A stretch of 53,022 bases of DNA, from positions 1-53,022 of IMG/VR virus record IMGVR_UViG_3300020452_000997. The stretch is one strand, 5' to 3'. The notes beneath the pieces are model-generated. The model had not been told where the DNA came from. It did no database searches and worked only from the letters and a program-made list of their open reading frames with translations. The position numbers were made by a program, and so were the translations under genes. Shown here piece after piece: positions 1 to 15,217 of this stretch. Origin of the DNA: a virus (Duplodnaviria; Caudoviricetes). How positions within the stretch are numbered: position 1 is the stretch's first letter; every line of letters begins with the position of its first letter.

Positions 1-538
1 TGGCCAAGCCTAGATATGTCCAATCGGATGTGGGGGCACTCGAAGAAGTAACATCGTCGTCATCATAAAAGCCAAAGACTAATGTAAATGGATCATAGGT
101 TAATGATGGGATTGCTTGATTGCTAAAATTGCTAGACGGGATTGTGGGGAATCCAGAGCTAGACTGGTTACCCGCGAAGGGTGTATCGAGAAGAGTGATT
201 GTATTTTTAGTGCTTCTTACTACTACAACAGCATAATTATCCGAATCAAAGACAGCCCAACTGCTTGGGATTGTAAAAGAAGTATCTATGATTGCCTTTC
301 TACAAGATACTTGAGCTTTAGGATTCGTATATCCAGAAGTTAACGATGCCCAACCGGGAATCGGTGGCTGATCTTCAATGAAATCAGTGCTGACAAAAAA
401 GACTAGATCGCCTACCTGTAAATTGCTAATGGTGTAGGGACTCTGTTCCGTGATAAAAGCTGAAAAAGGAACACTCCAGATTGATGTGGTGGGAGTTGGT
501 GATGGATAGCCGCCAATCAGGGCTTGATGTATTCCCAT
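1..538 (-). CDS. Partial virion/fibre-associated protein (runs off the window edge)
   Basis: ATG at 538 overlaps the upstream TAA (TAATG). The frame is open to the window edge: MGIHQALIGGYPSPTPT...VGDLVFFVS...PIPGWASL. It resembles the VGDLAVI...PSGWT domain of 11442..13703. Not in the ORF track. Confidence 0.75.
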   Translation of the reverse strand, partial: MGIHQALIGGYPSPTPTTSIWSVPFSAFITEQSPYTISNLQVGDLVFFVSTDFIEDQPPIPGWASLTSGYTNPKAQVSCRKAIIDTSFTIPSSWAVFDSDNYAVVVVRSTKNTITLLDTPFAGNQSSSGFPTIPSSNFSNQAIPSLTYDPFTLVFGFYDDDDVTSSSAPTSDWTYLGLA

Positions 539-2121
539 TAAGTTAAGCCTGCTCCACTAATTACAAATTCATTATTTGCTATGCAGAGCGCAGAGCACAA
601 ACCATATTGCGCCAATACTCTGTCACCCGTAGTCGCAGACCCTGCAAGCCTTAATGTTACGCTTCCACCTTGAGTTATTGTCTGATTGCTGCCGCTATCG
701 TTATAGATAGAGACCACATTGCCAGCACTAAATACACCACTCGGAACGGTAACTCCACCAGTAGTTATATTAATATGCTTGCCGCTATCCCCTGCGACAA
801 GGGTGTATGCGCTTGTTTGGCTGTTCTGTGGAATATCACTCGGACCTGCCGGGCCGACAGCTCCGTCAAGTTTAATTACTTGAATCGTAGATAAATTTGT
901 AACTAATGTTACAGATTCCGATGATGATCCACCAATTTTTTTAATCCTAAAATCAATTGTATCGTCAGAATCTGGCGTAGTAATGACCCGACTAATTGAA
1001 ACGTAGGTCTCCTCTGATCCACTAGAATTTCTAACGTAACCACCCTGGACCGATCCAAGTGTTGTTGAGTTTTGCCTGACTTCTAGTTCTCCAGTCCACC
1101 TATTGGTGCCACTCCCATCACCATTGACGACGATAGTACACATTGCCAGGTAAGTACCAGCGGCACCAAGAGTAATTAATCCATTGGTATTACTAAACCC
1201 CGTAGTTGAACCAACGGCTGTATCAATATCAAGAGTAGAGTAAGAAGTTGAATTAAGAGTTGTTGCAGAAGATGGTCCGGTGTAAACGGCGCTGCTTATT
1301 GCAGATCCACCACCGCCACCTCCAGAGATGGAAACGTTAGAAATACCAGTAATTCTTCCATTAGCATCTACAGCAATCTGAGCAACATTTGATCCATCGC
1401 CATAAGTAGCAGCAGAAGCTCCGGTTAGACCAGTCAATGAAGAACCAGAACCACTAAAGGTGGTTGCTGTTAACGTTCCATTAGAAGAATTGAAATTAAG
1501 ATTAGTTCCAGTTTTTGGTGCCTGATCTCCGGTGGCTGCTGTAGTAAATACTGGGAAACAAGTAGTGTCGCTAGATTCATCAGCAACTGTGACTTGCGTT
1601 GCAGTCCCGCTGCCGCCGGGAAGATTTGTCAATCCAGATCCATCGCCTGTGAATTTGGTTGCGGTTAAATTTCCGGTTGAACTGTTGTATTGGAGGTTAG
1701 AAAAATCAACTTTTGGGTCTTGCGCCCCGCCATCAGTTACAAAAACCGGGAAACAAGTTGTATCCGAAGTTTCATCCGCAGTTGTTAGCTGTATTCCTGT
1801 CAACCCAGATGCTGAACCAGTGAAAGATGTTGCCGCTAAGTTGCCAGTTGATGAGTTGTACTGCAAACTTCCAAAATCAACTTTTGGGGGAACAGTCCCT
1901 CCGTCAGTTACAAACACCGGGAAGCACGTTGTGTCGGTCGATTCGTCTGCAACCGTTATCTGAGTCGCAGTTCCACTACTCCCGCCGCCGATCTCTTTTA
2001 CAGACCCCCCATCATTCAAGTATAGTTTTTGCGCGGATTTGTCTATAGCAACTTCACCGTCAGCAATATCGCTTGTCGTTGGTGTGCTTGTCCCTCTTTT
2101 GATCTTAATTACGTTTGCCAT
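538..2121 (-). CDS. Fibre protein with Mtd_N-like N-terminus and three internal repeats
   Basis: N-terminus IKIKRG..P....DGEVAID..KLYL; Gly/Ser/Thr-rich; YG..VDANGRIT fibre repeat; C-terminal AYTLVAGDSGK...LAQYG domain common in phage fibres. Confidence 0.8.
   Translation of the reverse strand: MANVIKIKRGTSTPTTSDIADGEVAIDKSAQKLYLNDGGSVKEIGGGSSGTATQITVADESTDTTCFPVFVTDGGTVPPKVDFGSLQYNSSTGNLAATSFTGSASGLTGIQLTTADETSDTTCFPVFVTDGGAQDPKVDFSNLQYNSSTGNLTATKFTGDGSGLTNLPGGSGTATQVTVADESSDTTCFPVFTTAATGDQAPKTGTNLNFNSSNGTLTATTFSGSGSSLTGLTGASAATYGDGSNVAQIAVDANGRITGISNVSISGGGGGGSAISSAVYTGPSSATTLNSTSYSTLDIDTAVGSTTGFSNTNGLITLGAAGTYLAMCTIVVNGDGSGTNRWTGELEVRQNSTTLGSVQGGYVRNSSGSEETYVSISRVITTPDSDDTIDFRIKKIGGSSSESVTLVTNLSTIQVIKLDGAVGPAGPSDIPQNSQTSAYTLVAGDSGKHINITTGGVTVPSGVFSAGNVVSIYNDSGSNQTITQGGSVTLRLAGSATTGDRVLAQYGLCSALCIANNEFVISGAGLT
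1420..1970 (-). repeat. Three tandem ~58-65 aa intragenic repeats
   Basis: (T/V)ADE(S/T)xDTTCFPVF...PK....L.(Y/F)NSS.G.L.AT.F.G..S.LT occurs three times in the 527 aa ORF. Boundaries approximate. Confidence 0.85.
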
Positions 2122-2124
2122 TTA

Positions 2125-2172
2125 TCAGAACTTGCCTCCATCAGTTTTCAATGAATCAGGATAGTATTCCAT
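2125..2172 (-). CDS. Possible 15-aa micro-ORF or readthrough extension, MEYYPDSLKTDGGKF
   Basis: In frame with both flanking fibre genes and ends in the DGGxF motif found on neighbouring proteins. Confidence 0.35.
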   Translation of the reverse strand: MEYYPDSLKTDGGKF

Positions 2173-2181
2173 AACAGTATA

Positions 2182-3786
2182 TCAGAATGTTCCCCCATCA
2201 ATGGTTATTCCGTCTATGGATCCGCCTGTAATTGATACTGAAGAAGAATTTTGCGTACTCATGCTGCCCAATCCCAAAGTGGTTCGAGCTCCAGAGGCAT
2301 TCGCGTCATCAACAAGACTACGACCAAAACTTGTGAATGAGGTGGTATCAAAAGTGTCAGCACCCGTCGCGTAAATTAGCTCATTGGCGGCTACGGTAAC
2401 ACCGGCCAAAGCAGTTAGGGTTGCATCCAGAGGCTGGCCATTCGTAATTCCGTAACCCGCAAGCGTCGTAGGACTTGAGAATGCCGTAACTCGACCGTAG
2501 GCATCAACCGTAAGGCCGTTGTAAGTACCAGCCGATCCTGCTGTAGCCAGGTCAATGTTATTGGCATTGACTACGATTCTTGCGCTACTAGCTGTTTCTA
2601 CGTCTAAAGTGTTTCCGGTCTTAGTAAGGCCAGCGCCAGCTGAAACTTGACCAGCTCCAGAAAAATGTACAAAAACTAGGCTAGTAGTGCCAAGACTAAT
2701 CGGATTAGGAGTCTGTAGAACATAGCCTGCGTCGGCATTAGCAGTCCCTTCTTCAACGAAAGTAAACATTCCACTGGTGACTTCCCCGGCAGGACTATTG
2801 TCAGCATCGGAGGATCGAGACCAGGAACTAGCGGCTACGTCGTAAATGCCATTCTGAGTACCATTTGTCTGATTCTTGACCAGGACTCGATTACCGGCGG
2901 AGAGGGAGACGCCATCGATCGTTTGAGTGCCACTGAGAGTGATATTGGCAGTAGTTGCTGCTCTTACGCTGGCCTTGACATCAAGACCGTTAGCGAGCGC
3001 ATCTGCGTAGCTTTTGTTGACAGCATCCCCGTCATTAACTGGATCAGCTAGGCCAGTAATTCTCTTGCTGTTAAGAGCGACATTTGCTGCAGGAGCTGCC
3101 AGTGAGTCAAGAGTATTAGCCTGTACACCTGCATCGAAATCTGAAACTTGCGTATGGACGATATTGATCGCGGTGTTTGATGCAGCCGTTAAGCGCCCTT
3201 GTGCGTCAACCGTGTAGGTCGGCACATTGGCGCCTGAACCATAGGAGCCAGCGCTAACTGCCGTATCGTCAAGATTAACAGTAAGAGTATTAGATGTGCC
3301 AGCCGACGTTAGACCTGTACCTCCAGCAACCGTAACAGTTCCGCCTGAGAAAGCAGCCGTGCCGCTGTCGCCAGTTAGGGTCCCGCTACCATTTTCTAAA
3401 GCAGTCTCCAATTCCTGAAGCGCTGTTACCAGCACTGCATTGTCGGTAATAGTTGAGCCTGTAAATGTACCTAGGTCACCAACTTTATTGATTTCAGCGG
3501 CTGTCGCTGTTACAGCTGATCCACCGATTTGGAAGGTACCTGAGGCGTTTAAGGTGCCGCTAAAATTTTTAGTTCCAGAGGCCGTTTGAGTCCCCGTGAG
3601 GGCTAAAAAGCTGCCTTTGCCTCCAATCGATTCAATACTTGTGGCATTTCCTGAGCCGTCATCTCCACCGCCATAATATAGTACATCGTCAGCTTCATTA
3701 TAGGCTAACTCGGCATTTTTTAAAGAGGAAGGGGCGCCAGCTGATCCGCTAGAGGCTCTCCTTTTGATGCGAATCTCGTTGGCCAT
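2182..3786 (-). CDS. Fibre/head-decoration-type protein
   Basis: Mtd_N-like N-terminus (IRIKRR...LKNAELAYN..DVLYYG); DVKASVRAAT...RVLVKNQT..NGIY domain; VDAxGR.T repeats; ends IDGGTF*. Confidence 0.8.
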   Translation of the reverse strand: MANEIRIKRRASSGSAGAPSSLKNAELAYNEADDVLYYGGGDDGSGNATSIESIGGKGSFLALTGTQTASGTKNFSGTLNASGTFQIGGSAVTATAAEINKVGDLGTFTGSTITDNAVLVTALQELETALENGSGTLTGDSGTAAFSGGTVTVAGGTGLTSAGTSNTLTVNLDDTAVSAGSYGSGANVPTYTVDAQGRLTAASNTAINIVHTQVSDFDAGVQANTLDSLAAPAANVALNSKRITGLADPVNDGDAVNKSYADALANGLDVKASVRAATTANITLSGTQTIDGVSLSAGNRVLVKNQTNGTQNGIYDVAASSWSRSSDADNSPAGEVTSGMFTFVEEGTANADAGYVLQTPNPISLGTTSLVFVHFSGAGQVSAGAGLTKTGNTLDVETASSARIVVNANNIDLATAGSAGTYNGLTVDAYGRVTAFSSPTTLAGYGITNGQPLDATLTALAGVTVAANELIYATGADTFDTTSFTSFGRSLVDDANASGARTTLGLGSMSTQNSSSVSITGGSIDGITIDGGTF

Positions 3787-3823
3787 TTCTATCTAAAATT
3801 ATTGCACTTTAGGATACCTAGTT

Positions 3824-4102
3824 TTAAAATGCGCCACCATTTAGCATTCCGCCGTTTGACCAAGAGTTATTGTTGTACAGAAGAGCATCTCCATCAGACA
3901 AAGAAGATAGAGTGACATCACTTAAATTTGCAAGGCTTGAGCCACCCGTTGGTACAAGAGTACCGCTTTCGTTGACATAAAGAATATCTCTATCAACTGC
4001 GTAGCAAAGTTCACCATTTTTTAGAGAAGATATGGCAGCAGCTAAATCGTTAAAATTTCCCCTAGCTGGCAGTATGGGATTTCTGGGAGACGGAACTGAC
4101 AT
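3824..4102 (-). CDS. Small fibre adaptor protein
   Basis: Mtd_N-like module (ARG...LKNGELCYAVDRDILYV), one LxxLSDV...L.Y...W repeat, ends LNGGAF*. Confidence 0.75.
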   Translation of the reverse strand: MSVPSPRNPILPARGNFNDLAAAISSLKNGELCYAVDRDILYVNESGTLVPTGGSSLANLSDVTLSSLSDGDALLYNNNSWSNGGMLNGGAF

Positions 4103-4130
4103 TAATATCCTTTAGTCGTCTTAGTATTCC

Positions 4131-5039
4131 TTAGGGTGAAAAGTTGCCGCCGTCGTACACAGTGTTGTCTATAGAGCTAGATTGACCAGTAGTGAAGTTG
4201 CCTCCATCGAAGTCACGGTTATCCATGATGCCCATAGCAACTATGAGATTTATCCATTGACCGTTTTGTCTAACGTAAAAACCTCCATCCTGAGGAGCTT
4301 CTTCGACGTCACCGCCGCCACCACCTCCGCCTCCGCCGCCAGCAATAGCGGTAAGTTGCGGAACATGCAGATTGGTCCAACGGCCACTCCCATCGTATGT
4401 AAGGACCTGGCCTTTCTTAAGGGCCAGATTGATTTCGACGTCCTGAAGGTCTTCTAGGTTCGCCTCCGTAGCAATAAAGTCACTCCCACTATCCCCATCT
4501 TCTCCTTTTAATCCTGCTAAAGATTTAAGCCACTCTACCTTTGTGCCATTAAACCCCTCTTCTAAAGCAATATCGTAAGCACTCTTTCCGTCAATTCCGT
4601 CCCTACCAGGCTTTCCATCGCGAACGCTTTTCAGTTGCCCTTCTACTGCCTCAGAAAGCCCCTTAAAGTCTTTCTTGATGTTCTTGCGCTCTGATGCTAG
4701 TTGTTCAAGTTGATTAAGAACTTCCGGCTTTACAACAGTCTTAGCACTAGCAAGATCTGTTGTGGTGTAGTATTTGTTTTCTTTTTTAAAATTTGGCAAT
4801 ATTGAAGCGATTGCCTCTATAGCAAGTTCTGCTAATTCAGAACCCCCATCGAGTATCCAAATCTTCCAAGTGGCTTCAAAATCAGAGACAGTCGCATACT
4901 TATCAATATAAACGTAAAGATACTCACCAACATCAAATCCAGGTTTGCCTTCAACGACAACAAGCTTAGCACACTGGCTAATAATTGCATCGCTTCCAAG
5001 CTTGCGTAAAATGTCTGCACTGGAAAAGATCATAGCCAC
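4131..5039 (-). CDS. Putative fibre anchor protein
   Basis: Globular N-terminus, coiled coil, short collagen-like GKPGRDGIDGKSAY, LEDLQDV repeat, EAPQDGGFYVRQNGQW fibre repeat, two C-terminal DGGNF motifs. GTG start. Confidence 0.75.
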   Translation of the reverse strand: MAMIFSSADILRKLGSDAIISQCAKLVVVEGKPGFDVGEYLYVYIDKYATVSDFEATWKIWILDGGSELAELAIEAIASILPNFKKENKYYTTTDLASAKTVVKPEVLNQLEQLASERKNIKKDFKGLSEAVEGQLKSVRDGKPGRDGIDGKSAYDIALEEGFNGTKVEWLKSLAGLKGEDGDSGSDFIATEANLEDLQDVEINLALKKGQVLTYDGSGRWTNLHVPQLTAIAGGGGGGGGGGDVEEAPQDGGFYVRQNGQWINLIVAMGIMDNRDFDGGNFTTGQSSSIDNTVYDGGNFSP

Positions 5040-5050
5040 ACTGTCTCCCG

Positions 5051-5076
5051 CTAGGATTCCTACGTCGGAATAATAT
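5051..5076. promoter_or_regulatory. Back-to-back late promoter motifs
   Basis: GGAATCCTAG on the minus strand (5051-5060) and GGAATAATAT on the plus strand (5067-5076), facing the divergent genes at 5039 and 5100. Confidence 0.55.
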
Positions 5077-5099
5077 AGATGCCTACCAAATCGCTAAAA

Positions 5100-5249
5100 A
5101 TGGAACCTACACTTATTGTCGGCTTAGTTTTGTTCCTTGCTTCCGAGGTTCTGCCTTTTACGCCTTTGAAGGGTAACGGTTTACTTGATTCAATTATCAA
5201 AGCTTTACGCATAGCTTTTCCTCATCCCTCTGACACCGGTAAAAAATGA
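5100..5249 (+). CDS. Small membrane protein, holin-like
   Basis: MEPTLIVGLVLFLASEVLPFTPLKGNGLLDSIIKALRIAFPHPSDTGKK (49 aa): N-terminal hydrophobic helix, SE..P...K.NG motif, ATGA overlap with the next gene. Below the ORF-track cutoff. Confidence 0.6.
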   Translation: MEPTLIVGLVLFLASEVLPFTPLKGNGLLDSIIKALRIAFPHPSDTGKK

Positions 5250-5527
5250 TTTGGAAAGGTCTCACTGTTGAGATCATCAGAATAATCTGGAGTCATGGCT
5301 ATTTTGTCGATAACCAATGGCTCCAAATGATTCACAAAAACTTTTGGTGTTATTGGGTTGACTACAAAACAAGCATTACGCTAAAAGACGTGGACAAGCA
5401 GATAGAAAAGCTTTCGATAGAATCAACGATCGATCCACCTGTCTTCACAGAAGAAGTTAAAGGAGAAACACCATTAGGAGGTAAGATGAAACTAAAGGCA
5501 ACTTGGGTAGATGAAAAGATCGATTGA
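5246..5527 (+). CDS. Hypothetical protein
   Basis: 93 aa, overlaps both neighbouring genes. Confidence 0.6.
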   Translation: MIWKGLTVEIIRIIWSHGYFVDNQWLQMIHKNFWCYWVDYKTSITLKDVDKQIEKLSIESTIDPPVFTEEVKGETPLGGKMKLKATWVDEKID

Positions 5528-5705
5528 CGAAGCCTTGATTGTTCTTTTCAAAGGACAAACCAACGTTAAATTAATAGCCAATGAGGTCGACATCTCTCTG
5601 AGAGAAATGCAAGAATTGTTTCGCGATTACGTCGCCAAGACTCCCGTAGATGAAAATGCATGGAAAGGAGATGTCGAGGTTTCTTGGCCTTACTCAGGGA
5701 ATTAA
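5511..5705 (+). CDS. Small HTH-like protein
   Basis: NVKLIANEVDISLREMQELF resembles a helix-turn-helix. Confidence 0.55.
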   Translation: MKRSIDEALIVLFKGQTNVKLIANEVDISLREMQELFRDYVAKTPVDENAWKGDVEVSWPYSGN

Positions 5706-5726
5706 AGTAAAGCCAGGATCGCTTCT

Positions 5727-5843
5727 CTATTTCTTTTTCATTGACTTCTTTTTCATGAAAGCAGGCATTTCTTTTTTAGCAGCTTTCTTTTTTGCGGGTG
5801 GGCGTCCTTTTTTTGATCCGTAAGTACCTTTTCCGTATGGCAT
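5727..5843 (-). CDS. Very basic small protein
   Basis: MPYGKGTYGSKKGRPPAKKKAAKKEMPAFMKKKSMKKK (38 aa); late motif at 5881-5890. Not in the ORF track. Confidence 0.65.
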   Translation of the reverse strand: MPYGKGTYGSKKGRPPAKKKAAKKEMPAFMKKKSMKKK

Positions 5844-5894
5844 AGATTTTGACGCTTTCGCGGTTATAAGTGGTAACGGCATAGATTTCCTAAA

Positions 5895-6197
5895 TTACCA
5901 CTTAGCCCTGTCAGCCCAGTAGGCTGCTGACATCTTGCCCTTGGCAATGTTCTTAGCGTGACGGGCCTTAAAACTCGCACGTTTCTTTTTCATGCGAGAC
6001 GACTCTCCGGCCTTGGGTTTGCCTGCGGTTTTCGCGCCCTGCTCTCCGAAGCGAATGGTTTTGATTTTGTCGCCTTCCTTGGCAACAACAATGTGAGATT
6101 TCTTGGGGTGATTGGGTGTCCGCTTAGGCTTGTTGTAACTAGATACGCCAGCCCTTCCAAGACGCGGATCTTTCTTACGTGGTTTCTTTGTTGCCAT
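5895..6197 (-). CDS. Basic conserved phage protein
   Basis: K/R-rich; IRFG.QG...RASFKARH...SAAYWA motif pattern recalled from marine phages. Confidence 0.75.
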   Translation of the reverse strand: MATKKPRKKDPRLGRAGVSSYNKPKRTPNHPKKSHIVVAKEGDKIKTIRFGEQGAKTAGKPKAGESSRMKKKRASFKARHAKNIAKGKMSAAYWADRAKW

Positions 6198-6199
6198 AG

Positions 6200-6586
6200 T
6201 TAGCTCCGGGCTCGCTTGCCTGCTCTTTTAGCTTTCCGTGTATTAGCAACTACTCCCTTGCCTTTGCGACTTCCAGCACGTTTCTTTTGATCCGTTGCTC
6301 TTGCCTCGGCCTTGCTCATCGACTTCCATGCGGCGTCGGGCAAATATCGGGCTGTGCCGCCTTTGCGTTTTGCCTTTTTGCCGTCACGAGTGCGCCAACT
6401 TTCCTTTGTCCACTTTGTAAGCTTATTGTCAGATCTCTTGGGACCAGAATAGCTTCCGCCAGACTTTTTGTAGTAGTTTACAGCCAGCTGCGCTGCCCTC
6501 GCGCTCCATTTGCCACCCATCTTGCGCTTGGCTCTAGCTTTGGCCGCTGCCCACTTTTCAGGATCACGCTTGGTTGCAGTACTCAT
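6200..6586 (-). CDS. Basic conserved phage protein (DUF5872-like)
   Basis: WSARAAQL, LTKWTKESWRT and RYLPDAAW motifs; K/R-rich. Confidence 0.7.
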   Translation of the reverse strand: MSTATKRDPEKWAAAKARAKRKMGGKWSARAAQLAVNYYKKSGGSYSGPKRSDNKLTKWTKESWRTRDGKKAKRKGGTARYLPDAAWKSMSKAEARATDQKKRAGSRKGKGVVANTRKAKRAGKRARS

Positions 6587-6588
6587 GA

Positions 6589-6852
6589 TTACTTCTTGGT
6601 TGATTTTTTGTTGGCGCCTTGGCGAGCACGGTTCTTTGAAGCGGGCTCCCTAACTAGACCTCCTGTCTTGGTGTGGGAAAGATCTCCGCCCCCTTTGCCA
6701 TATATTTTGCGTTTTTGCCTAGCAGCGTTTAGTTTTGCACGATACCTTTTACGTTCTTCGGTACTGTGATATTCTGTGTCATACGCTTTTTTCTTGGCTC
6801 TTCCTTTTGAGCTATTTGCGTAATACTTAGCAGTGCGTGATTTAGCAGTCAT
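6589..6852 (-). CDS. Basic protein with degenerate HNH-like DLSH...NRAR motif
   Basis: K/R-rich; GGGDLSHTK...KNRARQG. ATG at 6852 preferred over the track start. Confidence 0.7.
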   Translation of the reverse strand: MTAKSRTAKYYANSSKGRAKKKAYDTEYHSTEERKRYRAKLNAARQKRKIYGKGGGDLSHTKTGGLVREPASKNRARQGANKKSTKK

Positions 6853-6853
6853 T

Positions 6854-7168
6854 CTAGTAATCCTCAAATCCTTTTAATTTACGTCGAAGCTCCTTCGATT
6901 CATTAGTCTGTTCAATGACGTGATAATCGACACGTTCCGTCAAGTACCTTATGTTGTCTTTCATATCACCCAGTACGCCAAAAAGCCTGTCCATCGACTT
7001 TTCAAACTCTTGTTTTGTTAAGTACTGCTCTGCCATTTTTAGCTCAACTTGATCAATTTTGTCAGCCGCTTCTCTAGACTGAGTAAGAGCCTCTTCTGAT
7101 TTCCTCCATGTGAATCCACCCCAGCCAAGCATGACAGCCATCACAAGCGGAAATAAGTGTTCTGGCAT
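6854..7168 (-). CDS. Membrane-anchored coiled-coil protein (lysis-associated?)
   Basis: N-terminal hydrophobic segment followed by a heptad-like region (YLTKQEF). Confidence 0.65.
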   Translation of the reverse strand: MPEHLFPLVMAVMLGWGGFTWRKSEEALTQSREAADKIDQVELKMAEQYLTKQEFEKSMDRLFGVLGDMKDNIRYLTERVDYHVIEQTNESKELRRKLKGFEDY

Positions 7169-7335
7169 GAAGTCAGTCCGCCTGTAGATAGTTTACCGCT
7201 GCATTCCACAGAATAAAAGACAGCCACACCGGAGATGCAACCAGTAAGAAAACAAAAGGCACCCCAACTTGCTAAGGTTTTTCTAACCGTTAAGCGATAA
7301 GAATTCTTACCGGCCTCGGTAGTAATTGTTTTCAC
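7141..7335 (-). CDS. Small membrane protein
   Basis: One hydrophobic segment; GTGA overlap with the upstream ORF. Confidence 0.5.
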   Translation of the reverse strand: MKTITTEAGKNSYRLTVRKTLASWGAFCFLTGCISGVAVFYSVECSGKLSTGGLTSCQNTYFRL

Positions 7336-7508
7336 AGTTCGGTTCCGTCTCGGTTCTCTTGTCCAGGGAGGTAACCTGTTCCAGCTAAGCCGGTAACTGG
7401 ATCGTCTATTTGTTGCTCTTTAATAGTTACAGGAATCGCAGAATTTGAATCAATGTCAATATTGACACCGTTAATGTATCTGGGGCCTGTTGAGTAATTA
7501 ACTTCCAT
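7332..7508 (-). CDS. Hypothetical 58-aa protein
   Basis: MEVNYSTGPRYINGVNID...ENRDGTEL*; fills the gap between 7513 and 7335. Not in the ORF track. Confidence 0.6.
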   Translation of the reverse strand: MEVNYSTGPRYINGVNIDIDSNSAIPVTIKEQQIDDPVTGLAGTGYLPGQENRDGTEL

Positions 7509-7512
7509 AACA

Positions 7513-7869: not shown

Positions 7870-7908
7870 CTTCTAGTGAATCAATTCTTCGTTAGTCTTC
7901 CAAGGTAT

Positions 7909-7930
7909 AAAAAAAGGGCCTAAGCCCTTA
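7909..7930 (-). terminator. Rho-independent terminator
   Basis: AAGGGC-TTAG-GCCCTT hairpin followed by a T-run on the minus strand. Confidence 0.75.
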
Positions 7931-7959
7931 TGCATTTTTATTTTCCGAAGCCTATGAAA

Positions 7960-8313
7960 TTAACGACGAGGGCCGTCAACTAGCTCATAGAATACGCCGG
8001 AAACAGTAGCGGTGCCGCCAAGGACGTACTGAACATTGTTGTCAGCGTCACAGAGAGCTCCACGGATGTGAGCGATTCCGACACCGTTTCGATCAAGGTC
8101 GGCAAGGTTGAAAACAACGTCTTGACCGCCAAGGGTTACGGTAATCTTGTTAGTACCAGCGTCGTCGATGCTACCAGCGTTTACTGCGATAACGCGGATT
8201 GTCTTAGCGTTAGCCAAGGTTGTATTTGCAGCAACAGCAGAGGCGGTAATTTCTGCTTCAGAGTCGAGGTTAAAACCTTCGCGAGGAAATACACCAGTTG
8301 AACGTGCAGCCAT
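7960..8313 (-). CDS. Capsid cement/decoration protein
   Basis: Directly downstream of the major capsid gene; beta-rich; AGGAG RBS before the ATG at 8313 (MAARSTGVFPREG). Confidence 0.7.
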   Translation of the reverse strand: MAARSTGVFPREGFNLDSEAEITASAVAANTTLANAKTIRVIAVNAGSIDDAGTNKITVTLGGQDVVFNLADLDRNGVGIAHIRGALCDADNNVQYVLGGTATVSGVFYELVDGPRR

Positions 8314-8413
8314 AGTTAAACTCCTAAATTGTAGAGAGGTAGGAAAATGCGACCTTACCAGAGCGAGGTCGTTACATACTATGCTACCAAAGAACATGAG
8401 CGATACGCCCTTA

Positions 8414-8440
8414 CAAGAAAAGGGGCTCGACGGCCCCTTG
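8414..8440 (-). terminator. Terminator after the major capsid gene
   Basis: AAGGGGC-CGTCGA-GCCCCTT then TTCTT on the minus strand. Confidence 0.7.
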
Positions 8441-8465
8441 TCTTTATTCAGTTGTCTAGGGTAGC

Positions 8466-9350
8466 TTAGAGAGTTGCGTTGATACCGCTCAAGCGAGAAG
8501 CTGCGCGTCCGTTAACCAGAGCCAAGCCGCAATACCATTCAACGCGGGTGATCATCTGTGGCTGTGTGAAGGACTCACCAAGCTCACGGACAGAAACACC
8601 ACCGTTCTGAATGCCTGTCAAGTGATCATTGCCAAAAGAAACGACATACACATCTTGAGCAGCAGGATTGCTGTCAAGAATAGCAACGTTCAGATTGTCG
8701 CGATCAAGCTCAAGGACGCGGACACCACCATAAGAAAGCTGCTGGTATCCAAACTCGTTGCGTGAGATCTCGATCTGACCGTTAGCACGAGCAAGCCTGC
8801 TAAGCTGACGACGTGCAGACTTCGACATTACGAGATACTTGTCACCGCCACTTGCGTCGCATGCATCGATAGCTTCGTCAAGCTTGCCAAGGTCAAGAGC
8901 GCCACCGCCGTTAGCGAAGAACTGGGAAGAGCCTGTAGCAATACGAGCAGCAAGGCCGTCGAACTCAGAAGGGGACTGGTTAGAGTCGCCATTGATGAAC
9001 TGTGATTCCCAGGCGAGTCGCATTGCACGAACACGGGACTGGATCTGATAAGCTTTAGCTGAAGCTCCTTCCATCTCGATGATGGCACGGTCAACCTTGA
9101 TGTCGCCGCCAAAAAGCTTCAAAGATTCAGACTGCTGACTTACTTCGCCATAGCTTTCAGCAAGAGTTCCGTTGTAATTGCGGAATCCTACATCAGGAAG
9201 ACTCTCTTCGCGCTTCCAGAAAAGGCCATTGCCTTCGATTTCGCGGAAAGGGAGGGCTGAAAGCAAAGGACCAGCTGCCAGCTCAGATACTACCGCCAGC
9301 TCCTGAGGAGTAGTAGCGTGTTTTTGGGCTTCTAATAGAGTAAGAGCCAT
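8466..9350 (-). CDS. Major capsid protein (HK97-like fold)
   Basis: 294 aa; LTLLEA, LPF..I.GN, FINGD....EFDGL, LDEAID, TRVEWYCGLA..RLSGI; scaffold upstream, terminator downstream. Confidence 0.85.
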   Translation of the reverse strand: MALTLLEAQKHATTPQELAVVSELAAGPLLSALPFREIEGNGLFWKREESLPDVGFRNYNGTLAESYGEVSQQSESLKLFGGDIKVDRAIIEMEGASAKAYQIQSRVRAMRLAWESQFINGDSNQSPSEFDGLAARIATGSSQFFANGGGALDLGKLDEAIDACDASGGDKYLVMSKSARRQLSRLARANGQIEISRNEFGYQQLSYGGVRVLELDRDNLNVAILDSNPAAQDVYVVSFGNDHLTGIQNGGVSVRELGESFTQPQMITRVEWYCGLALVNGRAASRLSGINATL

Positions 9351-9398
9351 AATAAATACCTAAAACGAATAATGAATGATTTGGGTGTTTAGGTTTTC

Positions 9399-9455
9399 AA
9401 CGATCATCACGATCGTTTCAACAAATGCACCCTTTCAGTCTTCTTCGTCACGAAG
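9399..9455 (-). promoter_or_regulatory. Two C-GUGAY-G hairpins in the capsid 5' UTR
   Basis: AACGATC-GTGAT-GATCGTT (9399-9417) and CTTC-GTGAC-GAAG (9443-9455) on the mRNA strand. Confidence 0.55.
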
Positions 9456-9605
9456 TTGCCCTACAGGGTTGCCTTAACTATTATTCCAAAGGGGTTTATA
9501 CTACAACAATGAGCTTTATAAAAGCTGATCTGTAGTTACGACAAGCAGCCCTATCAGTAAAACACATAAAAAAACTGCTAAAACAACGTAAATCAAAACT
9601 CAGCC

Positions 9606-10334
9606 TTAGGGATTTGCCGGAAAAGCATTTAAGAATTTTTCTTCACGAGTCATAGAAGAGAAGTCTTCTATTACCATCCCGTTGGCGTCTGTTCCGCCGT
9701 ATCCAATACCGGCGCCTCCAGTCTTGGTTCCTTTAAAGAAAGTTCCATAGATTGGATGAGTTTTATAGGCTCCAATATAATCTTGAGCTGTAATGCGCTT
9801 GCCAGATTCCTTGTCAAGAACAGGATCTCCACCGGAATCAAGGACCGTCAAAGATCCGTCAGGCTCTAGGCGAAAATTCCCACCAACCTGTTGAGCTATC
9901 ATGTCAAAGAAACTTACTCCATCAGCGCTATCCGTTCTTCCTCCGGCCTCGTTAAAAACTTTTTCTAAGGCATATTTCTTTTGATATTCCTGAAGAGCTG
10001 TTTTAGATGCCGCCGCCTCTTTAGCAGATGCCTCCGCCTGCTGGCTGTATTTAAGCTCAATAGCATCGCGAGACTCAGAAAACTGTTGCTGAAGTTGAGA
10101 GGCTTTTGCCAACTCTGCTTGCATTGAGCTCCACTCATCTGGATTTACGTCAGCAAAGCGCTCTAGCTGAGCCGCTTGTTCTTTTACTTGTTTTTCATAC
10201 TGCTTTCGTGATTCGCGTTCAGCTTTAAGAGCTTTAAGAAGATTCTCGGCATCAGCGCGAGGCATCATGTTTTCCGATCCTGATGCTTGAGGAGTGTTGA
10301 CTTCTGTCTCAGGAGTCATGTTCTCGTCAGCCAT
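9606..10334 (-). CDS. Capsid scaffolding protein
   Basis: Acidic N-terminus, long coiled coil (LKALKAERESRK), FFKG..TGGAG..GG...MTREEK tail; immediately upstream of the capsid gene. Confidence 0.8.
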   Translation of the reverse strand: MADENMTPETEVNTPQASGSENMMPRADAENLLKALKAERESRKQYEKQVKEQAAQLERFADVNPDEWSSMQAELAKASQLQQQFSESRDAIELKYSQQAEASAKEAAASKTALQEYQKKYALEKVFNEAGGRTDSADGVSFFDMIAQQVGGNFRLEPDGSLTVLDSGGDPVLDKESGKRITAQDYIGAYKTHPIYGTFFKGTKTGGAGIGYGGTDANGMVIEDFSSMTREEKFLNAFPANP

Positions 10335-10421
10335 ATAGAAAGCCAGGCGTCACGCCTGGTTGAGTAGTTCGACGTAGTATGCCAATCAGTCGCTCAAGTT
10401 GCTAAAAAATAGTACAAATGC

Positions 10422-11045
10422 CTAGCTGCCAACCAGCTGATCAACTTGTGCTCGCCTGCTGATCCCTGCTTCCCTTAGGGTGGGCCCGTACCCGACGATC
10501 TGTATCAATCCTCCACCTTTGTAAGTACATACGTTTGGCGATGTATTGTTTTTATAAGTGTAAATTCCTGAAAAAGGGAAGCGACCCCCACCCCTTGGAG
10601 GAACAGTACCATCTGATCTTATTAGGGATTCGTATATAAAGCCGCTTTCAAAACAGCCAAGCGCAGGGATGCAGAAGCGAGCAATATTGCAAAAGGCCCA
10701 AGGACCAGCAGTACCACCTTGTACCACAGAATATCCTAACCCAGCATCGTTTATGCCATTTACTATTCCATTCCAGATATAAGCTACGCTGTAAACATCT
10801 CTTATAGGGAAGATTTCACATGGAAGACCGCAGCACTGGACGGCACATGATAGTTGGTATTGAAAAACAACTGCTGTGCTGTAATATACTATATCGCAAT
10901 CGCAGTAGTCTGGCCTAAACGCATACCCGGCAGGGCAATAATCAGCAGGGTTGGATGGCAGACTTTGCCCCTCGTATTCGCCCCAAGCGCATTTTGGCTT
11001 AGGCTTGCACTCGTTTTGGTTACTAGGATTTGGAGCAATGGGCAT
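10422..11045 (-). CDS. Cys-rich putative virion protein
   Basis: 207 aa with 13 Cys by manual count (CPAG, CDC, CC motifs). Confidence 0.65.
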   Translation of the reverse strand: MPIAPNPSNQNECKPKPKCAWGEYEGQSLPSNPADYCPAGYAFRPDYCDCDIVYYSTAVVFQYQLSCAVQCCGLPCEIFPIRDVYSVAYIWNGIVNGINDAGLGYSVVQGGTAGPWAFCNIARFCIPALGCFESGFIYESLIRSDGTVPPRGGGRFPFSGIYTYKNNTSPNVCTYKGGGLIQIVGYGPTLREAGISRRAQVDQLVGS

Positions 11046-11411
11046 TTATTTTTTCCACTTTTTCTGAGGACAAAGCATGTCGGGATCACCGCCGACCCAC
11101 GTTTTTGCTTCCATAAAGCAACCGCAATCATTGCATCTCTTCGATTCTGGATTAAAAGAATCGCAAGCCTTGCACACAGAGTATCGCTCCTCTCGGATTT
11201 TAACAGAGACCTTGCCATTTTTAATGGCTTGCATGCCAGTACGAACTAAGCCTTTGGCCATCTTCCCTATGCCGGGAGAAGTCTTGGAATACTTGAGGTT
11301 GACATTACTCGTAAACATATTATTCAGCTCTTCATTCCTCTCTTTAGGCCACGCAGAAACAGGGCCTATAGGATAAACTCCTGCCGACTTAAGCTCATCC
11401 TTTAGAATCAT
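11046..11411 (-). CDS. Zinc-binding protein (DUF6171-like)
   Basis: R..VCKAC...CNDCGCF..AK.....CP..KW motif; late motif at 11430-11439. Confidence 0.7.
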   Translation of the reverse strand: MILKDELKSAGVYPIGPVSAWPKERNEELNNMFTSNVNLKYSKTSPGIGKMAKGLVRTGMQAIKNGKVSVKIREERYSVCKACDSFNPESKRCNDCGCFMEAKTWVGGDPDMLCPQKKWKK

Positions 11412-11441
11412 ATTTAAGGCAAGACTGGGCTAGGGTACCTA

Positions 11442-13703
11442 TCAAGACTTAAGCACATAACTAGAAGATCCAGTGTTGTAATACAAAGATCCAGAGGCAA
11501 CTCCGCCTGTACCAGCAGCTGCATCGTCGGCATATTCTGCAATGCCAAGAGCAACCCTGGGGCTTGACCATGACAATACTCCGCTACCATTAGTTACCAG
11601 TACATAATCTGAAGAGCCGTCCACTAAAGGCAGTGTGTAAGTCTGATCGACGCTGTATGATGAAGGAAGTTTAAAGCCTAGATAGTTACCTGTAGGGGTA
11701 GGTAATCGTGAGCTGCCGGTTTCAAATCGCACTTCAGGAGTATTGTCAGTGGCCGAAACGTCACCCTCTAGTCGCAAGGTGACCCCATTATCAGTCCTTA
11801 CTCCGGCTCCTTTCGTAGGATGCACATTAAAAGCAGTGGTGCCCAAGGTACTACTTGCGAAAACCCCAGCTCCAAACGCAGCGTTAACGTAAAACTTCCA
11901 TGTATCTCCCGATGGGACGTCCGCACTAGAGAAAGGAATTTGATCTAAGCCAGTAATTTCAAGAGATCCCGAAGAATAACTTGTACCCTCAAGTACGCTA
12001 TAAGCAAGACTTCCACTAGCTGGAGGATAATAGCTTGGCCATCCAGGTGTCCATTTGCTCCCATTGTATACTAGCCCCATAAGTGGGACAAGATCTATTT
12101 GGGTTGCGTCGACAGCTGCATCATAATCCGCTTCTACGATTGTTGAAGTAGTCATCGAAGTAATCGGAGTGTCTGTCTGGCAAACCCTTAAGTCGTCATA
12201 ATATTTGTTGTGACTCGTGCCTGCGCTTGATGAGGCCCAAGCAAACTCCAAAACCTCAGACTCTACTGAATAGGCAGCTAATGCTTGAGGCCACGTCTCA
12301 TTATTCACAGCAATACTACCATCAACCCAAACAGATACCGAGGCTGGAGCTCTAGTTAATCCACTCGATGACCCAAAGTCAACTTGCACTGCAAAATGAT
12401 GCCACTGGTTTGCTGCTATGGTAGGGAGAGTTCCGACTTCACTAAAAGCACTGTTACTGTATAGACCAAAGCCAGTATCTCTAGTATAAATGGCGTAACC
12501 AGTACCGCTGCCGAGCGCTTGCAACGTGCCACCTAGGGCAACTCTATAGGTTGAATTAAGAGTATTGGTGTTATAGAGCCAAAAAGACCAACAGTCATAG
12601 CGTTTCGTAGTGGACTGAAGAACTGTTCCAAAATCTAGGGACCCATAACTATCGGTTCCTTTAAATGAAGTTGTACCGGTTTTAGCTTGCTCTGTGCTTG
12701 GGGCACCCGCTTGGGTCACATACGGGTAAGGTCCCTCGAAATCAACAGAAAAAGCCGGTGAAGGATTTGTTGTGTTGACGTCGTTTAAAGCGCTTAGAGT
12801 GGCAGCGCCTTCAGGAGGCTTAGGGATAACAGGTGCGGATACGATATGATAGCCGTCAGTCAGTGCTACGGGACTTCCAGTATTATTGAGGGCTAAGATG
12901 TTAAAGGAATTGATCCCTGTTCCAAGAAACGAAGACACTCTTCTAACAACGCCCGACTCGTAACCACTTCCGTCTGTAGCCGGATTAAGCCAGGCGACAT
13001 CAGCCCCTGAGAGGGGAGTCATCCGTACACCACTGGTCGTATTGAAAGCGTATACGGATGTGGCTACTGAAATAGTAAAGCCGCCTGCAGGCGCCGCAGG
13101 CCCTGTGAAGTCGTAGCCCCCGACAGGCAACGAGCCTGTAGAGGTTGTGTCAACAATCGTGACGGCGCCGAGAGTCGCATTACTGAAAGAGGCGATCTGA
13201 ACGAACCAGTCATCCCCAGCGGATGAAGTAGTAAGCGATAAGCTCACGCTTCCAGCGCTTATATCAGAGGCATCGAGCTCCTTATGCAAAACAAAACTCA
13301 GGAGATCGGCAACGGTGCTGCTTGAGCTAGTGTATCCCTGGCTACTGGCTAGCGTCCATCCAGAGGGGACTGCGATTGGCACTACGGAGTTTGGATCTCC
13401 CCCAGCCCTGACTGACCCTGATATCACAGCGAGGTCACCAACCGCTGCGTTAGAGGGGATGCTGACCGGGAAGCTCGATAAATTGAAGCCCCCTACCGCA
13501 TCAGAGGACGCGCCAGTAAGTCCAGTACCAGCATCACCGCCACCGCCAGAAATTGTTACGATACTTCCGTCCGTATGCTTCGTAAACAGCTTCCCGTCTG
13601 CAGTATTAACCGCTAGCTCAGCAACCTCCAGGTCTGCCGCCAACGGCTCCTCGGAAGCGGTCCCAGATGCTTTGGCGACAATACGTGCGTTCAGTTCAGC
13701 CAT
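11442..13703 (-). CDS. Receptor-binding fibre protein with LamG/concanavalin-like domain
   Basis: Mtd_N-like N-terminus (LEVAELAVNTADGKLF); WSFWLY...NQWHHFAV...VWVDG...YYDDLRV LamG pattern; YTLP..DG...VLVTNGSGVLSW repeat. Confidence 0.8.
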   Translation of the reverse strand: MAELNARIVAKASGTASEEPLAADLEVAELAVNTADGKLFTKHTDGSIVTISGGGGDAGTGLTGASSDAVGGFNLSSFPVSIPSNAAVGDLAVISGSVRAGGDPNSVVPIAVPSGWTLASSQGYTSSSSTVADLLSFVLHKELDASDISAGSVSLSLTTSSAGDDWFVQIASFSNATLGAVTIVDTTSTGSLPVGGYDFTGPAAPAGGFTISVATSVYAFNTTSGVRMTPLSGADVAWLNPATDGSGYESGVVRRVSSFLGTGINSFNILALNNTGSPVALTDGYHIVSAPVIPKPPEGAATLSALNDVNTTNPSPAFSVDFEGPYPYVTQAGAPSTEQAKTGTTSFKGTDSYGSLDFGTVLQSTTKRYDCWSFWLYNTNTLNSTYRVALGGTLQALGSGTGYAIYTRDTGFGLYSNSAFSEVGTLPTIAANQWHHFAVQVDFGSSSGLTRAPASVSVWVDGSIAVNNETWPQALAAYSVESEVLEFAWASSSAGTSHNKYYDDLRVCQTDTPITSMTTSTIVEADYDAAVDATQIDLVPLMGLVYNGSKWTPGWPSYYPPASGSLAYSVLEGTSYSSGSLEITGLDQIPFSSADVPSGDTWKFYVNAAFGAGVFASSTLGTTAFNVHPTKGAGVRTDNGVTLRLEGDVSATDNTPEVRFETGSSRLPTPTGNYLGFKLPSSYSVDQTYTLPLVDGSSDYVLVTNGSGVLSWSSPRVALGIAEYADDAAAGTGGVASGSLYYNTGSSSYVLKS

Positions 13704-13731
13704 CTGGAAGATTCAGTCTTCGCTAGTATTC

Positions 13732-14898
13732 CTAGACCCCGCTGCCAAAGGTTCCCCCAGAGACAGAAGTGATGGCTTGATTTCCGTAAGCTGTAATTGT
13801 TACCTGCGAATTAACGTTAGCACCCGCTTGGCTTCTAACCGCTGCGTAAATAGCCTCAGTAGCGGAAGTGTCATTGTTAAAATAAGAAGTGCCTGGAGTT
13901 GCTGTTAAAGTGGTTCCAGCAGTAATGTAAAATTCTGCTAAAACGCCAGAACCTGTAGAAGGATCAGTAGCATAGGTTCTGCTAGCGTCTGACGTTCTTT
14001 CCGCCGCAGAGCCGTAAAGAACAATCCAAGCATCCAAAGAGGATGTGATTTTTGCGATAATTCCAGAAGTTCCAATTCCGCTAAAAGTTGCTGCACCAGA
14101 AGAAGCGGTTTTGTTTTCTGTCAGCCGAGCAATAGTAGATCCTCCTCCACCTCCACCTCCACCAGTCGCATTAGCCCAAATAGGAAGTCCGCTAGACACA
14201 GTAAGAACTTGAGATTCGTTTCCGATTCCTAGTCTTGTCGTAGAACCTCCAGACCTTATTATAACATCTCCGTTAGTGGTCAGTGGGTCAGTAAAACCCC
14301 CAGAAGAGTTCAATGGTTGCCACTCCGAATCGGCATTAACCCATGTCAAAACTTGCCCGTCCGTGGGTGGATTTGTTGTTGTATCTACATCGGACAGGTC
14401 GCCAATAGACCCAACAGTGCTTGGAGTAGCCCATGTCAACACTCCACTGCCATTTGTCGTAAGAGCCTGGCCACTTGTTCCAGTGTCGTCAGGAAGTACA
14501 AGCGTATAAGTCGCAGCCGCACTGTGAGGCGGCGATTTAATCTTTACTCCATGGCTATTAGTTTCGCAATTTAGCTGTATAGCTGCGTCATTACCTGTGT
14601 TTCCTTTTATTTCAACAACGCCTGTAGTATTAGGAGCTAATTTTAAGTTTGCTGCACTAACGGTAACAATTTCAAAGCCATTTGTGTCTAGATTGCCGCC
14701 AAGTTGAGGGCTTGTATCACCAACTACAAGAACGTCAGTTACTGTTGCGGTTAAAACTCCACCTTCTATAATATAAAGTACATCAATATCCGTTGCGTAA
14801 CACAGCTCACCTTCTTGTAGGTCCGATATTCCAGCCGTTAGCGCAGTCAGTGTGCCACGAGCTACTCTTACGGGCACACGGTAAGAAGGGACTGGCAT
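13732..14898 (-). CDS. Fibre protein
   Basis: Mtd_N-like module (VARG...LQEGELCYATD); DTSPQLGGNLD, LVLPDD.G..GQ.L and DLSDV repeats; ends SGGTFGSGV*. Confidence 0.8.
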   Translation of the reverse strand: MPVPSYRVPVRVARGTLTALTAGISDLQEGELCYATDIDVLYIIEGGVLTATVTDVLVVGDTSPQLGGNLDTNGFEIVTVSAANLKLAPNTTGVVEIKGNTGNDAAIQLNCETNSHGVKIKSPPHSAAATYTLVLPDDTGTSGQALTTNGSGVLTWATPSTVGSIGDLSDVDTTTNPPTDGQVLTWVNADSEWQPLNSSGGFTDPLTTNGDVIIRSGGSTTRLGIGNESQVLTVSSGLPIWANATGGGGGGGGSTIARLTENKTASSGAATFSGIGTSGIIAKITSSLDAWIVLYGSAAERTSDASRTYATDPSTGSGVLAEFYITAGTTLTATPGTSYFNNDTSATEAIYAAVRSQAGANVNSQVTITAYGNQAITSVSGGTFGSGV

Positions 14899-14932
14899 AA
14901 CACGATTCTGTCTGGACTAGAATGCCGAATAC

Positions 14933-15217
14933 TTAAGTGAACTCACCTCCATCAGGTACCTCTCCGTCAGAAGCTCCAGTAGTGAAGTCACCTCCACCCC
15001 AAAAAACCAAACCACCACTTCCTCCGCCGCTTCCGCTGATAGTAACGATACTACCGGCAGAATTCTTAGTAAATAGCGTAGCAGCCCCGGCAGTAAGACC
15101 TAGAACGAGTTCCCCTTGAGTAATCGCATCCGTGCCACCTGTCTCGATAGCGGCAATGATAGTCGCACTAGAATCCGTAGAGTTTTTAAGGACTATTCGA
15201 TCAGGAAAAACCGCCAC
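14933..15217 (-). CDS. Small fibre adaptor protein
   Basis: RIVLKNS...QGELVLG...LFTK module followed by GGGDF and DGGEF motifs. GTG start. Confidence 0.75.
   Translation of the reverse strand: MAVFPDRIVLKNSTDSSATIIAAIETGGTDAITQGELVLGLTAGAATLFTKNSAGSIVTISGSGGGSGGLVFWGGGDFTTGASDGEVPDGGEFT

Follow-up and report, generated by a model that had tools for sequence, protein, structure and literature searches.

The window analysed here, i.e. the whole stretch of 53,022 nucleotides of the IMG/VR record IMGVR_UViG_3300020452_000997, belongs to an S-CBS2-like Synechococcus siphovirus, whose major capsid protein (8466-9350, minus strand) is 80-83% identical to those of S-CRES1-3 and S-CBS2. It carries two clusters of tail fibre genes, which are designated below by their lower coordinate, and whose products share short C-terminal peptides ('plugs') and N-terminal modules ('sockets'), the subject of this report. 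Cluster A, downstream of the head genes, consists of 4131, 3824, 2182 and 538; cluster B, between the gene for the Cys-rich protein 15249 and the scaffold gene, consists of 14933, 13732 and 11442 (Table 1). A check of the open reading frames (ORFs) placed all the named fibre genes on the minus strand, with the coordinates of a preliminary description of this DNA unchanged.

The PHROG matches of the proteins in the two clusters are tail-fibre families; 13732 matches phrog_677, 'baseplate wedge tail fiber protein connector' (E 1e-11). The orthologues gp030-032 and gp050 are labelled structural proteins in the S-CBS2 record as deposited. A Pfam search with ten proteins gave no match above cut-off. 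The true start of 4131 is likely to be the ATG at 5033 and not the GTG at 5039, because the orthologues begin MILSSADIL; no socket was found in this protein.

Table 1. Features of the two fibre gene clusters, with the roles proposed for them (aa, amino acids)
Feature	Coordinates	Strand	Description
4131	4131-5039	-	First protein of cluster A, 300 aa from ATG 5033; globular N-domain, collagen-like stretch, foldon-like motif, tandem plug
4131 N-domain, residues 1-110	4704-5033	-	Presumed virion attachment
4131 foldon-like motif GGDVEEAPQDGGFYVRQNGQWINLI	4242-4316	-	Residues 242-266, just before the tandem plug; translation checked
4131 tandem plug DFDGGNFTTGQSSSIDNTVYDGGNFSP	4134-4214	-	C-terminus, from translation
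3824	3824-4102	-	92-aa adaptor: type-a socket 3938-4102, one beta-hairpin motif, plug NGGMLNGGAF 3827-3856
2182	2182-3786	-	534-aa extender: type-b socket 3622-3786, shaft, plug ...ITGGSIDGITIDGGTF 2185-2232
538	538-2121	-	527-aa terminal unit of cluster A: type-c1 socket 1957-2121, no plug
14933	14933-15217	-	94-aa first unit of cluster B: type-d N-module 15038-15217, Gly/Ser linker, tandem plug WGGGDFTTGASDGEVPDGGEFT 14936-15001
13732	13732-14898	-	388-aa extender of cluster B: type-a socket 14734-14898, plug VSGGTFGSGV 13735-13764
11442	11442-13703	-	753-aa terminal unit of cluster B: type-c2 socket 13539-13703, large central domain, conserved C-terminal 40 aa, no plug
15249	15249-16826	-	Cys-rich 525-aa protein, 61 Cys, directly upstream of cluster B

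C-terminal plugs

The preliminary description held that five of the fibre proteins end in a GGxF peptide. Translation confirmed this for 2182, 3824, 4131, 13732 and 14933 (C-termini in Table 1) and revealed no plug peptide at the C-termini of 538 and 11442. The 88 non-overlapping ORFs of the window (16,391 aa) contain 15 GGxF motifs. The five fibre proteins account for seven of them, all 0-20 residues from the C-terminus; the remaining eight are at least 51 residues away from a C-terminus. Both 4131 and 14933 have two GGxF motifs, 10-13 residues apart, and are referred to as having a tandem plug. In S-CBS2, the orthologues keep these ends despite large differences in length (gp051 ends in ...EIDGGTF, gp031 in ...VSGGTFGSG, gp050 in ...GGDFSGGSF and gp030 in ...NVDGGEIT), and those of 538 and 11442 have no terminal plug either.

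N-terminal sockets

A hidden Markov model (HMM) of the N-terminal module was built from the six window modules, and a leave-one-out version was run against the 88 window ORFs. This search found 538, 2182, 3824 and 13732 (E 5.5e-6 to 1e-12) and missed 11442, while 14933 was retrieved only with E 0.0068, ranked behind one unrelated ORF. When profiles were compared with that of the 538/2182 type, the 11442 type scored 98.6% (E 6e-16), the 3824/13732 type 86% (E 5e-6) and the 14933 type 33%, the last scoring 5% against the 3824 type. Because the HMM and the profile-profile comparisons join all the modules but that of 14933, five of the six are, in terms of sequence, demonstrably one module, and 14933 shares its pattern only. 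The earlier view that six proteins begin with the same module is therefore retained for 538, 2182, 3824, 11442 and 13732, and given up for 14933, where the likeness is weak.

The modules were assigned to type a (MPxPSxRxxxxxARG...GE(L/I)CYA; 3824 and 13732), type b (MANxIRIKRR; 2182), type c1 (MANxIKxKR...LGEL; 538), type c2 (MAELNARI...VAELAVNTADGKLF; 11442) and type d (MAVFPDRIVLKN; 14933). When PDB sequences were searched with the module profile, no significant match was obtained, the best (E 0.03) being an unrelated protein; residues 11-52 of 11442 matched the N-terminus of phrog_1699 with E 0.0012. In an hhalign comparison, a profile of 12 modules (A1) matched residues 1-80 of T4 gp37 over 50 columns (96.3%, E 1.8e-9). 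By this profile evidence, the module is homologous to the N-terminus of T4 gp37.

Gene order in related loci

Three sets of loci from IMG/VR were surveyed with the module HMM, run over stop-to-stop ORFs. Set 1 comprised 80 loci around capsid homologues (7,323 ORFs, 118 socket matches); set 2, 79 new loci retrieved with the type-a socket alignment alone (98 socket matches); and set 3, the 80 loci kept from a retrieval with only the type-c1 alignment (at least 600 pattern matches, of which 559 were confirmed; 140 socket matches). A mixed alignment of 27 module sequences contained no stretch conserved enough to be used as a query for locus retrieval. All 118, 98 and 140 socket matches were on the coding strand.

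Complete ORFs with a downstream neighbour were scored for a GGx-hydrophobic motif within the last 25 residues. Among socket proteins followed by a socket gene, the motif was present in 41/44, 16/17 and 52/57 cases (sets 1, 2 and 3, respectively), and among non-socket proteins followed by a socket gene in 34/72, 70/79 and 63/76. The corresponding figures were 5/58, 0/69 and 8/67 for socket proteins without a socket gene next to them, and 64/1082, 27/554 and 49/697 for all other ORFs. With a stricter definition of the plug (GGx[F/Y] with no more than four residues after it, identical tails being removed within each set), the pooled counts were 193 for plug then socket, 19 for plug only, 77 for socket only and 1970 for neither; the resulting odds ratio of about 260 is not a probability, as the loci share ancestry and some contigs were sampled in more than one set. 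Thus, the co-occurrence survey that the preliminary description had suggested showed that, over the three sets, a socket gene comes after nearly every terminal GGx[F/Y] (193 vs 19). Plug and socket genes overlap by one base in set 2, the stop codon of the former running into the start of the latter.

Several of the plug-only cases (L204, L230, L225, L173 and L222; the L numbers designate individual loci) precede N-modules that fall below the HMM threshold, and some are artefacts of ORF calling. In L206, an ORF of 146 aa, which may be a mobile insertion, sits between a gene whose product ends in ...TDGGNF and its type-b socket gene. The plug-only cases also include a family ending in ...GGFY (L099, L143, L147, L157, L158 and L160), in which an ORF of 169 aa precedes one of 580-635 aa, the stop and start codons touching or overlapping, and the next protein begins MPRK... 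and has no socket. This end may be another type of C-terminal docking peptide, or it may be due to chance.

Nearly all of the 31 GGxF matches in the set-1 ORFs classified as neither belong to yet another family, ending in a conserved ...GGVFYELVDGPxR, and are not plugs. The window contains a member of this family, a small protein encoded by the gene after the capsid gene (7960-8397, minus strand); its orthologues are found in 31 set-1 ORFs, and it is unrelated to the plug.

Plug form and socket type

The form of the plug was compared with the type of the next socket in 153 non-identical adjacencies from sets 1 and 2. Before a type-b socket, the upstream protein ended in ...GGx(x)GGxF, with Phe as the last residue, in 11/11 cases; before a type-c1 socket, its last residues were [IV]DGG[TV][FY], again in 11/11; before a type-c2 (11442-type) socket, it carried GGT[FY]GSG in 11/12 (one row from the 'other' class being counted). 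The 93 proteins preceding a type-a socket had a tandem GGGDFxTG...DGGxF in 62 cases, a single plug in 14 and none in 17. Before the type-d (14933-type) module, there was no plug in 18 of 21 cases, the other three being chance GGx motifs in Cys-rich tails.

The plug form follows the downstream socket, not the family of the upstream protein. The 4131 family ends in a tandem plug where the next gene encodes a type-a socket (the window, L004, L055, L070 and L074), and in ...GGDFSGGSF or ...TDGGNF where it encodes a type-b socket (S-CBS2 gp050, which is L048, and L069). Cognate plug/socket forms number at least four; they would set the order in which the parts assemble and prevent the two fibres from mixing.

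A natural fusion

Two of the related loci, L055 and L070, contain a fusion of the adaptor and the extender of cluster A. Residues 1-53 of the fusion proteins match residues 1-53 of 3824 (72% and 68% identity, respectively), while their remainder matches 2182 from residue 65 or 61 to the end (65% and 62%). Relative to the window, the fusions lack precisely two pieces at once, the plug half of 3824 and the 2182 socket, as expected if these meet in the assembled fibre. In S-CBS2, the 92-aa adaptor is absent altogether.

A predicted plug-socket complex

The multimer prediction proposed in the preliminary description was run for three copies of 3824 (alignment of eight) and three copies of residues 1-100 of 2182 (13 sequences aligned, 11 rows used). 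The plug was predicted to lie on the first strand of 2182, with a model score of 0.91 (0.91, 0.91 and 0.90 in the individual runs) as compared with 0.23 for the best of three controls. In the calibration of the method, this mark was reached by 58 of 80 solved complexes and by 2 of 110 mismatched pairs; the calibration holds only roughly for custom alignments and for a job of three plus three chains, and the model supports binding without proving it. The predicted local distance difference test score (pLDDT) of the partner was 97, and at least 96% of the contacts were common to the runs. It is unlikely that the prediction recalls a solved complex, because the PDB sequences show no resemblance to the module.

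In the modelled interface, residues 67-75 and 83-92 (NGGMLNGGAF) of 3824 face residues 1-11, 19-20, 23, 25, 28 and 46 of 2182. The pairs with the lowest error run in register (85 with 3/4, 87 with 5/6, 89 with 7/8 and 91 with 9/10), every plug is in contact with two or more chains of the socket, and the two GGx motifs of 3824 (NGGML and NGGAF) contact the same socket trimer. We read this predicted arrangement as a parallel strand addition of the plug around the threefold axis.

Proposed assembly of the two fibres

Docking of the plug onto the socket of the next gene's product, as put forward in the preliminary description, is supported on computational grounds by gene order, co-variation, the fusion proteins, the predicted complex and the homology to gp37. 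The physical contact is suggested by the model, and the proteins are presumably trimeric.

We consider it likely that the two clusters encode two fibres, each composed of separate trimeric proteins arranged end-to-end in gene order and joined by cognate plugs and sockets. Cluster A would form the chain 4131 > 3824 > 2182 > 538, and cluster B the chain (virion) > 14933 > 13732 > 11442. At each joint, the last 6-27 residues of the proximal protein would pack onto the first beta-strand of the next socket and the residues around it, and the threefold fibre would continue across the joint; the plug would consist of Gly-Gly-x-aromatic, with the aromatic residue at the free C-terminus or a few residues from it. 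The chain starts would attach to the virion by other means, namely the globular N-domain of 4131 and the divergent N-module of 14933, and the last protein of each chain, which has no plug, presumably binds the host. Whereas the motifs, their positions, their gene-order association and co-variation, and the homology to gp37 are read from the sequences, the linear rather than branched topology and the binding role of the distal units are inferred.

The three plug-bearing C-termini of cluster A (4131, 3824 and 2182) come before three sockets, of types a, b and c1, and the two of cluster B (14933 and 13732) before sockets of types a and c2. Each of these pairs is of the cognate form found in other loci. 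The number of plug-bearing C-termini equals that of downstream sockets, so that none is left for a branch and no pairing across clusters is needed. The combinatorial, branched appendage envisaged in the preliminary description is not borne out, in that each socket subtype has its own plug form and the numbers of plugs and sockets are equal.

As for the start of cluster A, the N-domain of 4131 is conserved among 16 orthologues (63% mean column identity) and was modelled with a mean pLDDT of 80.7. It matched no PHROG family, and Foldseek gave 0 matches in the PDB at E <= 0.001. There were weak Foldseek matches to the phage Mu terminator (9khy_1, prob 0.85, TMq 0.55), to 9lj8_A and to lambda gpU, so that the weak matches include tail-terminator and neck proteins but fall short of identifying such a fold.

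The start of cluster B had been ascribed to 15249, whose internal LDGGTI was thought to anchor the second cluster. The motif is present (at residue 124), but it is missing from S-CBS2 gp029 and S-CRES2 gp91, and 15 upstream proteins of related loci have a GGx-hydrophobic motif at unrelated positions or none at all. LDGGTI was dropped as a plug because it is not conserved. A plug-bearing anchor in 15249 is not supported either: the type-d module is the one subtype without an upstream plug, the protein before it being in all cases Cys-rich or otherwise variable. The counterparts of 15249 keep their position before cluster B, with very variable sequence and length (14-69 Cys), and 15249 may be a putative attachment site for 14933.

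Alternative explanations and exceptions

A branched fibre was weighed against the linear chain. In such a fibre, the two-plug chains of 4131 and 14933 would hold two socket trimers each, and the fibre would fork. With two GGxF motifs per chain, there are six per trimer for the three chains of a socket trimer, and BPP-1, whose Mtd_N is a distant relative of the module, is reported to have two Mtd trimers per fibre (PMC2408619). However, the tandem plug is no sign of splitting, because it is the normal partner of a type-a socket even when a single socket gene follows. In set 2, GGxF is present in 68/79 upstream proteins, yet a plug is present in 0/69 of the downstream socket proteins; in the window, neither cluster has a plug-bearing C-terminus to spare; in the model, both GGx motifs of 3824 touch one socket trimer; and only one such end, ...DLGGIA, is encoded by the BPP-1 fibre gene upstream of mtd. 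A branched fibre thus appears unlikely, although a fork bearing two copies of one and the same downstream trimer may occur. Similarly unlikely is a more far-reaching proposal, namely a docking code readable from sequence, with orthogonal plug/socket pairs across siphoviruses, T7-like and T4-like phages, in which the tandem plug forks the fibre and so explains the two Mtd trimers of BPP-1.

Two further explanations dispense with the contact itself. Plug and socket might both mark non-terminal fibre segments for some other reason, such as recognition by an assembly chaperone or capping of each protein's own beta-helix; both motifs are short and Gly-rich, chaperones are often needed in fibre assembly, and the evidence of contact is the model alone. 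Against this, the plug subtype tracks the socket subtype encoded next, even within one upstream family; the L055 and L070 fusions drop one plug and one socket together; the terminal proteins have no plugs; and no chaperone-like gene lies beside each joint. We regard this explanation as very unlikely. The conserved gene ends could instead be DNA-level recombination seams for the swapping of fibre modules, not protein contacts, considering that modules are clearly exchanged between phages and that the adaptor may be present, absent or fused. This is hardly credible, as the intergenic spacers differ and codon choice is not locked. Where two set-2 loci (2145 pairs) share a degenerate residue, the codon is also the same in a fraction of 0.43 for the socket and 0.43 for the plug, while 0.37 is expected from pooled codon usage; synonymous sites at the set-2 joints were conserved no more than those flanking them. 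The idea of a codon lock was dropped on these figures, which indicate conservation at the protein level. Recombination within the conserved ends may occur as a by-product.

It should be noted that several observations weigh against end-to-end docking of cognate plugs and sockets. The kinship of the loci, and the contigs shared among sets, mean that the counts and the Fisher p-value overstate independence. The 77 sockets without a terminal plug upstream include all the 14933-type modules and 17 type-a cases, and therefore the socket can attach to something else. Conversely, 19 terminal GGx[FY] motifs have no recognised socket next to them; six of these come from the one unrelated ...GGFY family, while L008 and L026 are genuine exceptions. 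Plugs are missing from three socket proteins (L055 4858-6870 and those in L072 and L073) whose genes are followed by a socket gene. The module of 14933 is only weakly similar to the other five, with no demonstrable homology in the comparisons made. The only direct test of docking is a single model, obtained with custom alignments for one of the five joints, and its controls included neither a non-cognate socket nor a plug deletion. Finally, T4 gp36, which occupies the position of the plug protein, ends in ...DSVQDFGYY and has no GGxF.

Comparison with known fibre systems

The attachment of fibres to other fibres by their N-termini is textbook knowledge (PMC12143355). In T4, gp37 is bound through its N-terminal region by a gp36 trimer, and the four fibre proteins come together in a set order (PMC3004832); (gp36)3-(gp37)3 has been modelled as the T4 distal rod in a 2026 preprint. 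A residue-level account of the gp36-gp37 interface was not found in the available parts of the T4 tail review (PMC3004832) or of that preprint. The proposed joints resemble those of T4 in that the socket's putative partner is encoded immediately upstream and the genes would follow the order of the parts in the fibre (gp34-gp35-gp36-gp37 in T4). The two systems differ in that the window belongs to a siphovirus and has up to three successive joints of distinct subtypes, with adaptors as small as 92-94 aa; moreover, 4131, 3824, 2182, 13732 and 14933 gave no match to the gp36 family of Pfam (Phage_T4_gp36) at E <= 0.1. A literature search, with supplements outside its scope, found no published phage description of a GGx-aromatic C-terminal partner or of cognate classes. 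We regard the proposed plug-socket joint as a hitherto undescribed form of the joint between gp36 and gp37 of T4.

The socket had also been called Mtd_N-like. No window protein reached the cut-off of Mtd_N (PF18454; 26.3 bits), the best being 538 with 12.8 bits (E 0.11), and a full-length Pfam scan of the window proteins gave no Mtd_N at E <= 0.1; an hhalign comparison of the module profile with a bona fide Mtd_N sequence gave 3.8% only. The cut-off was passed, however, by proteins of the same arrangement in related loci (51.1 bits in L096, 28.2 bits in L173), and there were end-to-end, sub-threshold matches of Mtd_N to 538 and to a type-a socket protein. Since Mtd_N passes in related loci and not in the window proteins, what remains of the name is a distant likeness, not membership.

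In BPP-1, the tail fibres carry Mtd at their ends (PMC2408619). The fibre gene bbp9 precedes mtd, and its product (Bbp9) has the ...DLGGIA end mentioned above; bona fide Mtd_N proteins directly follow genes with DGGTF ends in L173 and L222. Unlike the proteins considered here, Mtd is a terminal receptor binder of the C-type-lectin kind diversified by a retroelement, and nothing of that kind is found in the window.

Another likeness concerns 4131, which matched Fibritin_C (PF07921) with 17.5 bits (E 0.0048), below the cut-off of 21 and hence a likeness only, and phrog_1056, fibritin neck whisker, with E 0.0056. Its counterpart in S-CRES2, gp113, is annotated as fibritin; it has a tandem plug end and is followed by a socket protein of 1317 aa.

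Branched assemblies of tailspikes or fibres are known from CBA120, G7C and K1-5. In these phages, as proposed for the window, receptor-binding proteins hang on each other via N-terminal attachment modules, with N-terminal anchor domains and T4 gp10-like adaptor domains, and the docking site is a folded internal domain. In the window, by contrast, docking would involve a free C-terminal peptide, and the arrangement is consistent with a linear chain. Pfam found no gp10-like domain in the window fibre proteins.

Distribution of the arrangement

The plug-socket arrangement also occurs in other lineages. A T7-type tail fibre (phrog_32829, E 8e-81) obeys the same rule in L109 and in the Autographiviridae record AP013546; in the latter, the fibre ends in ...IDGGNFNSGGSLVTTTQTIDGGSFN and is followed by a socket protein of 212 aa. 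In T7-like and other lineages, only one socket gene comes after a tandem plug, and its product is plug-less. The same arrangement is found on contigs with fibres that start in bona fide Mtd_N (L096 and L124), and in set 3 chains of three genes, coding for a small protein ending in ...DGGNF, a type-b protein ending in ...DGGTF and a type-c1 protein, are present on many unrelated contigs.

The survey also gave information on proteins at the distal end. The last 40 residues of 11442 (...LGIAEYADDAAAGTGGVASGSLYYNTGSSSYVLKS, 11445-11564, minus strand) recur in proteins of 95-98 aa composed of a socket and this tail (L050:7663-7959 and L129:6004-6291). These minimal proteins correspond to 11442 without its middle of 650 residues, and the shared tail could be a distal cap or a further docking element. 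Throughout set 2, the gene after that for a small plug-less socket protein (169-236 aa) encodes a large protein (797-1735 aa; e.g. L109:6708-9602, L096:6521-8914 and L143:6531-11738) with the start MS.IGSNALAGASG...SLRFNS, which hints at a further joint of a different type.

Neighbouring genes

A gene at 2-538 (minus strand) overlaps the stop codon of 538-2121, starts with ATG at 538 and runs off the window; the N-terminus of its product is homologous to S-CBS2 gp053. It has no socket, so the gene after that of the terminal unit 538 encodes a protein of another kind. Three adjoining genes that lie between the head genes and cluster A (5895-6867, minus strand) encode small, very basic, K/R-rich proteins of 100, 128 and 92 aa, possibly DNA-binding or internal. 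Besides 15249-16826, a second Cys-rich protein is encoded at 10422-11045 (minus strand).

Implications

If the joints work as proposed, the order and composition of a multi-protein fibre could be read from gene ends alone, and the distal host-binding unit of each fibre could be identified. Many small genes of marine phages now listed as 'hypothetical' would become annotated adaptors. The finding also points to what the partner of an N-terminus of the T4 gp37 or Mtd_N type looks like. Short, modular and apparently specific joints would explain how fibre segments are added, dropped or fused, and they would offer natural connectors for the construction of chimeric fibres in laboratory phages.

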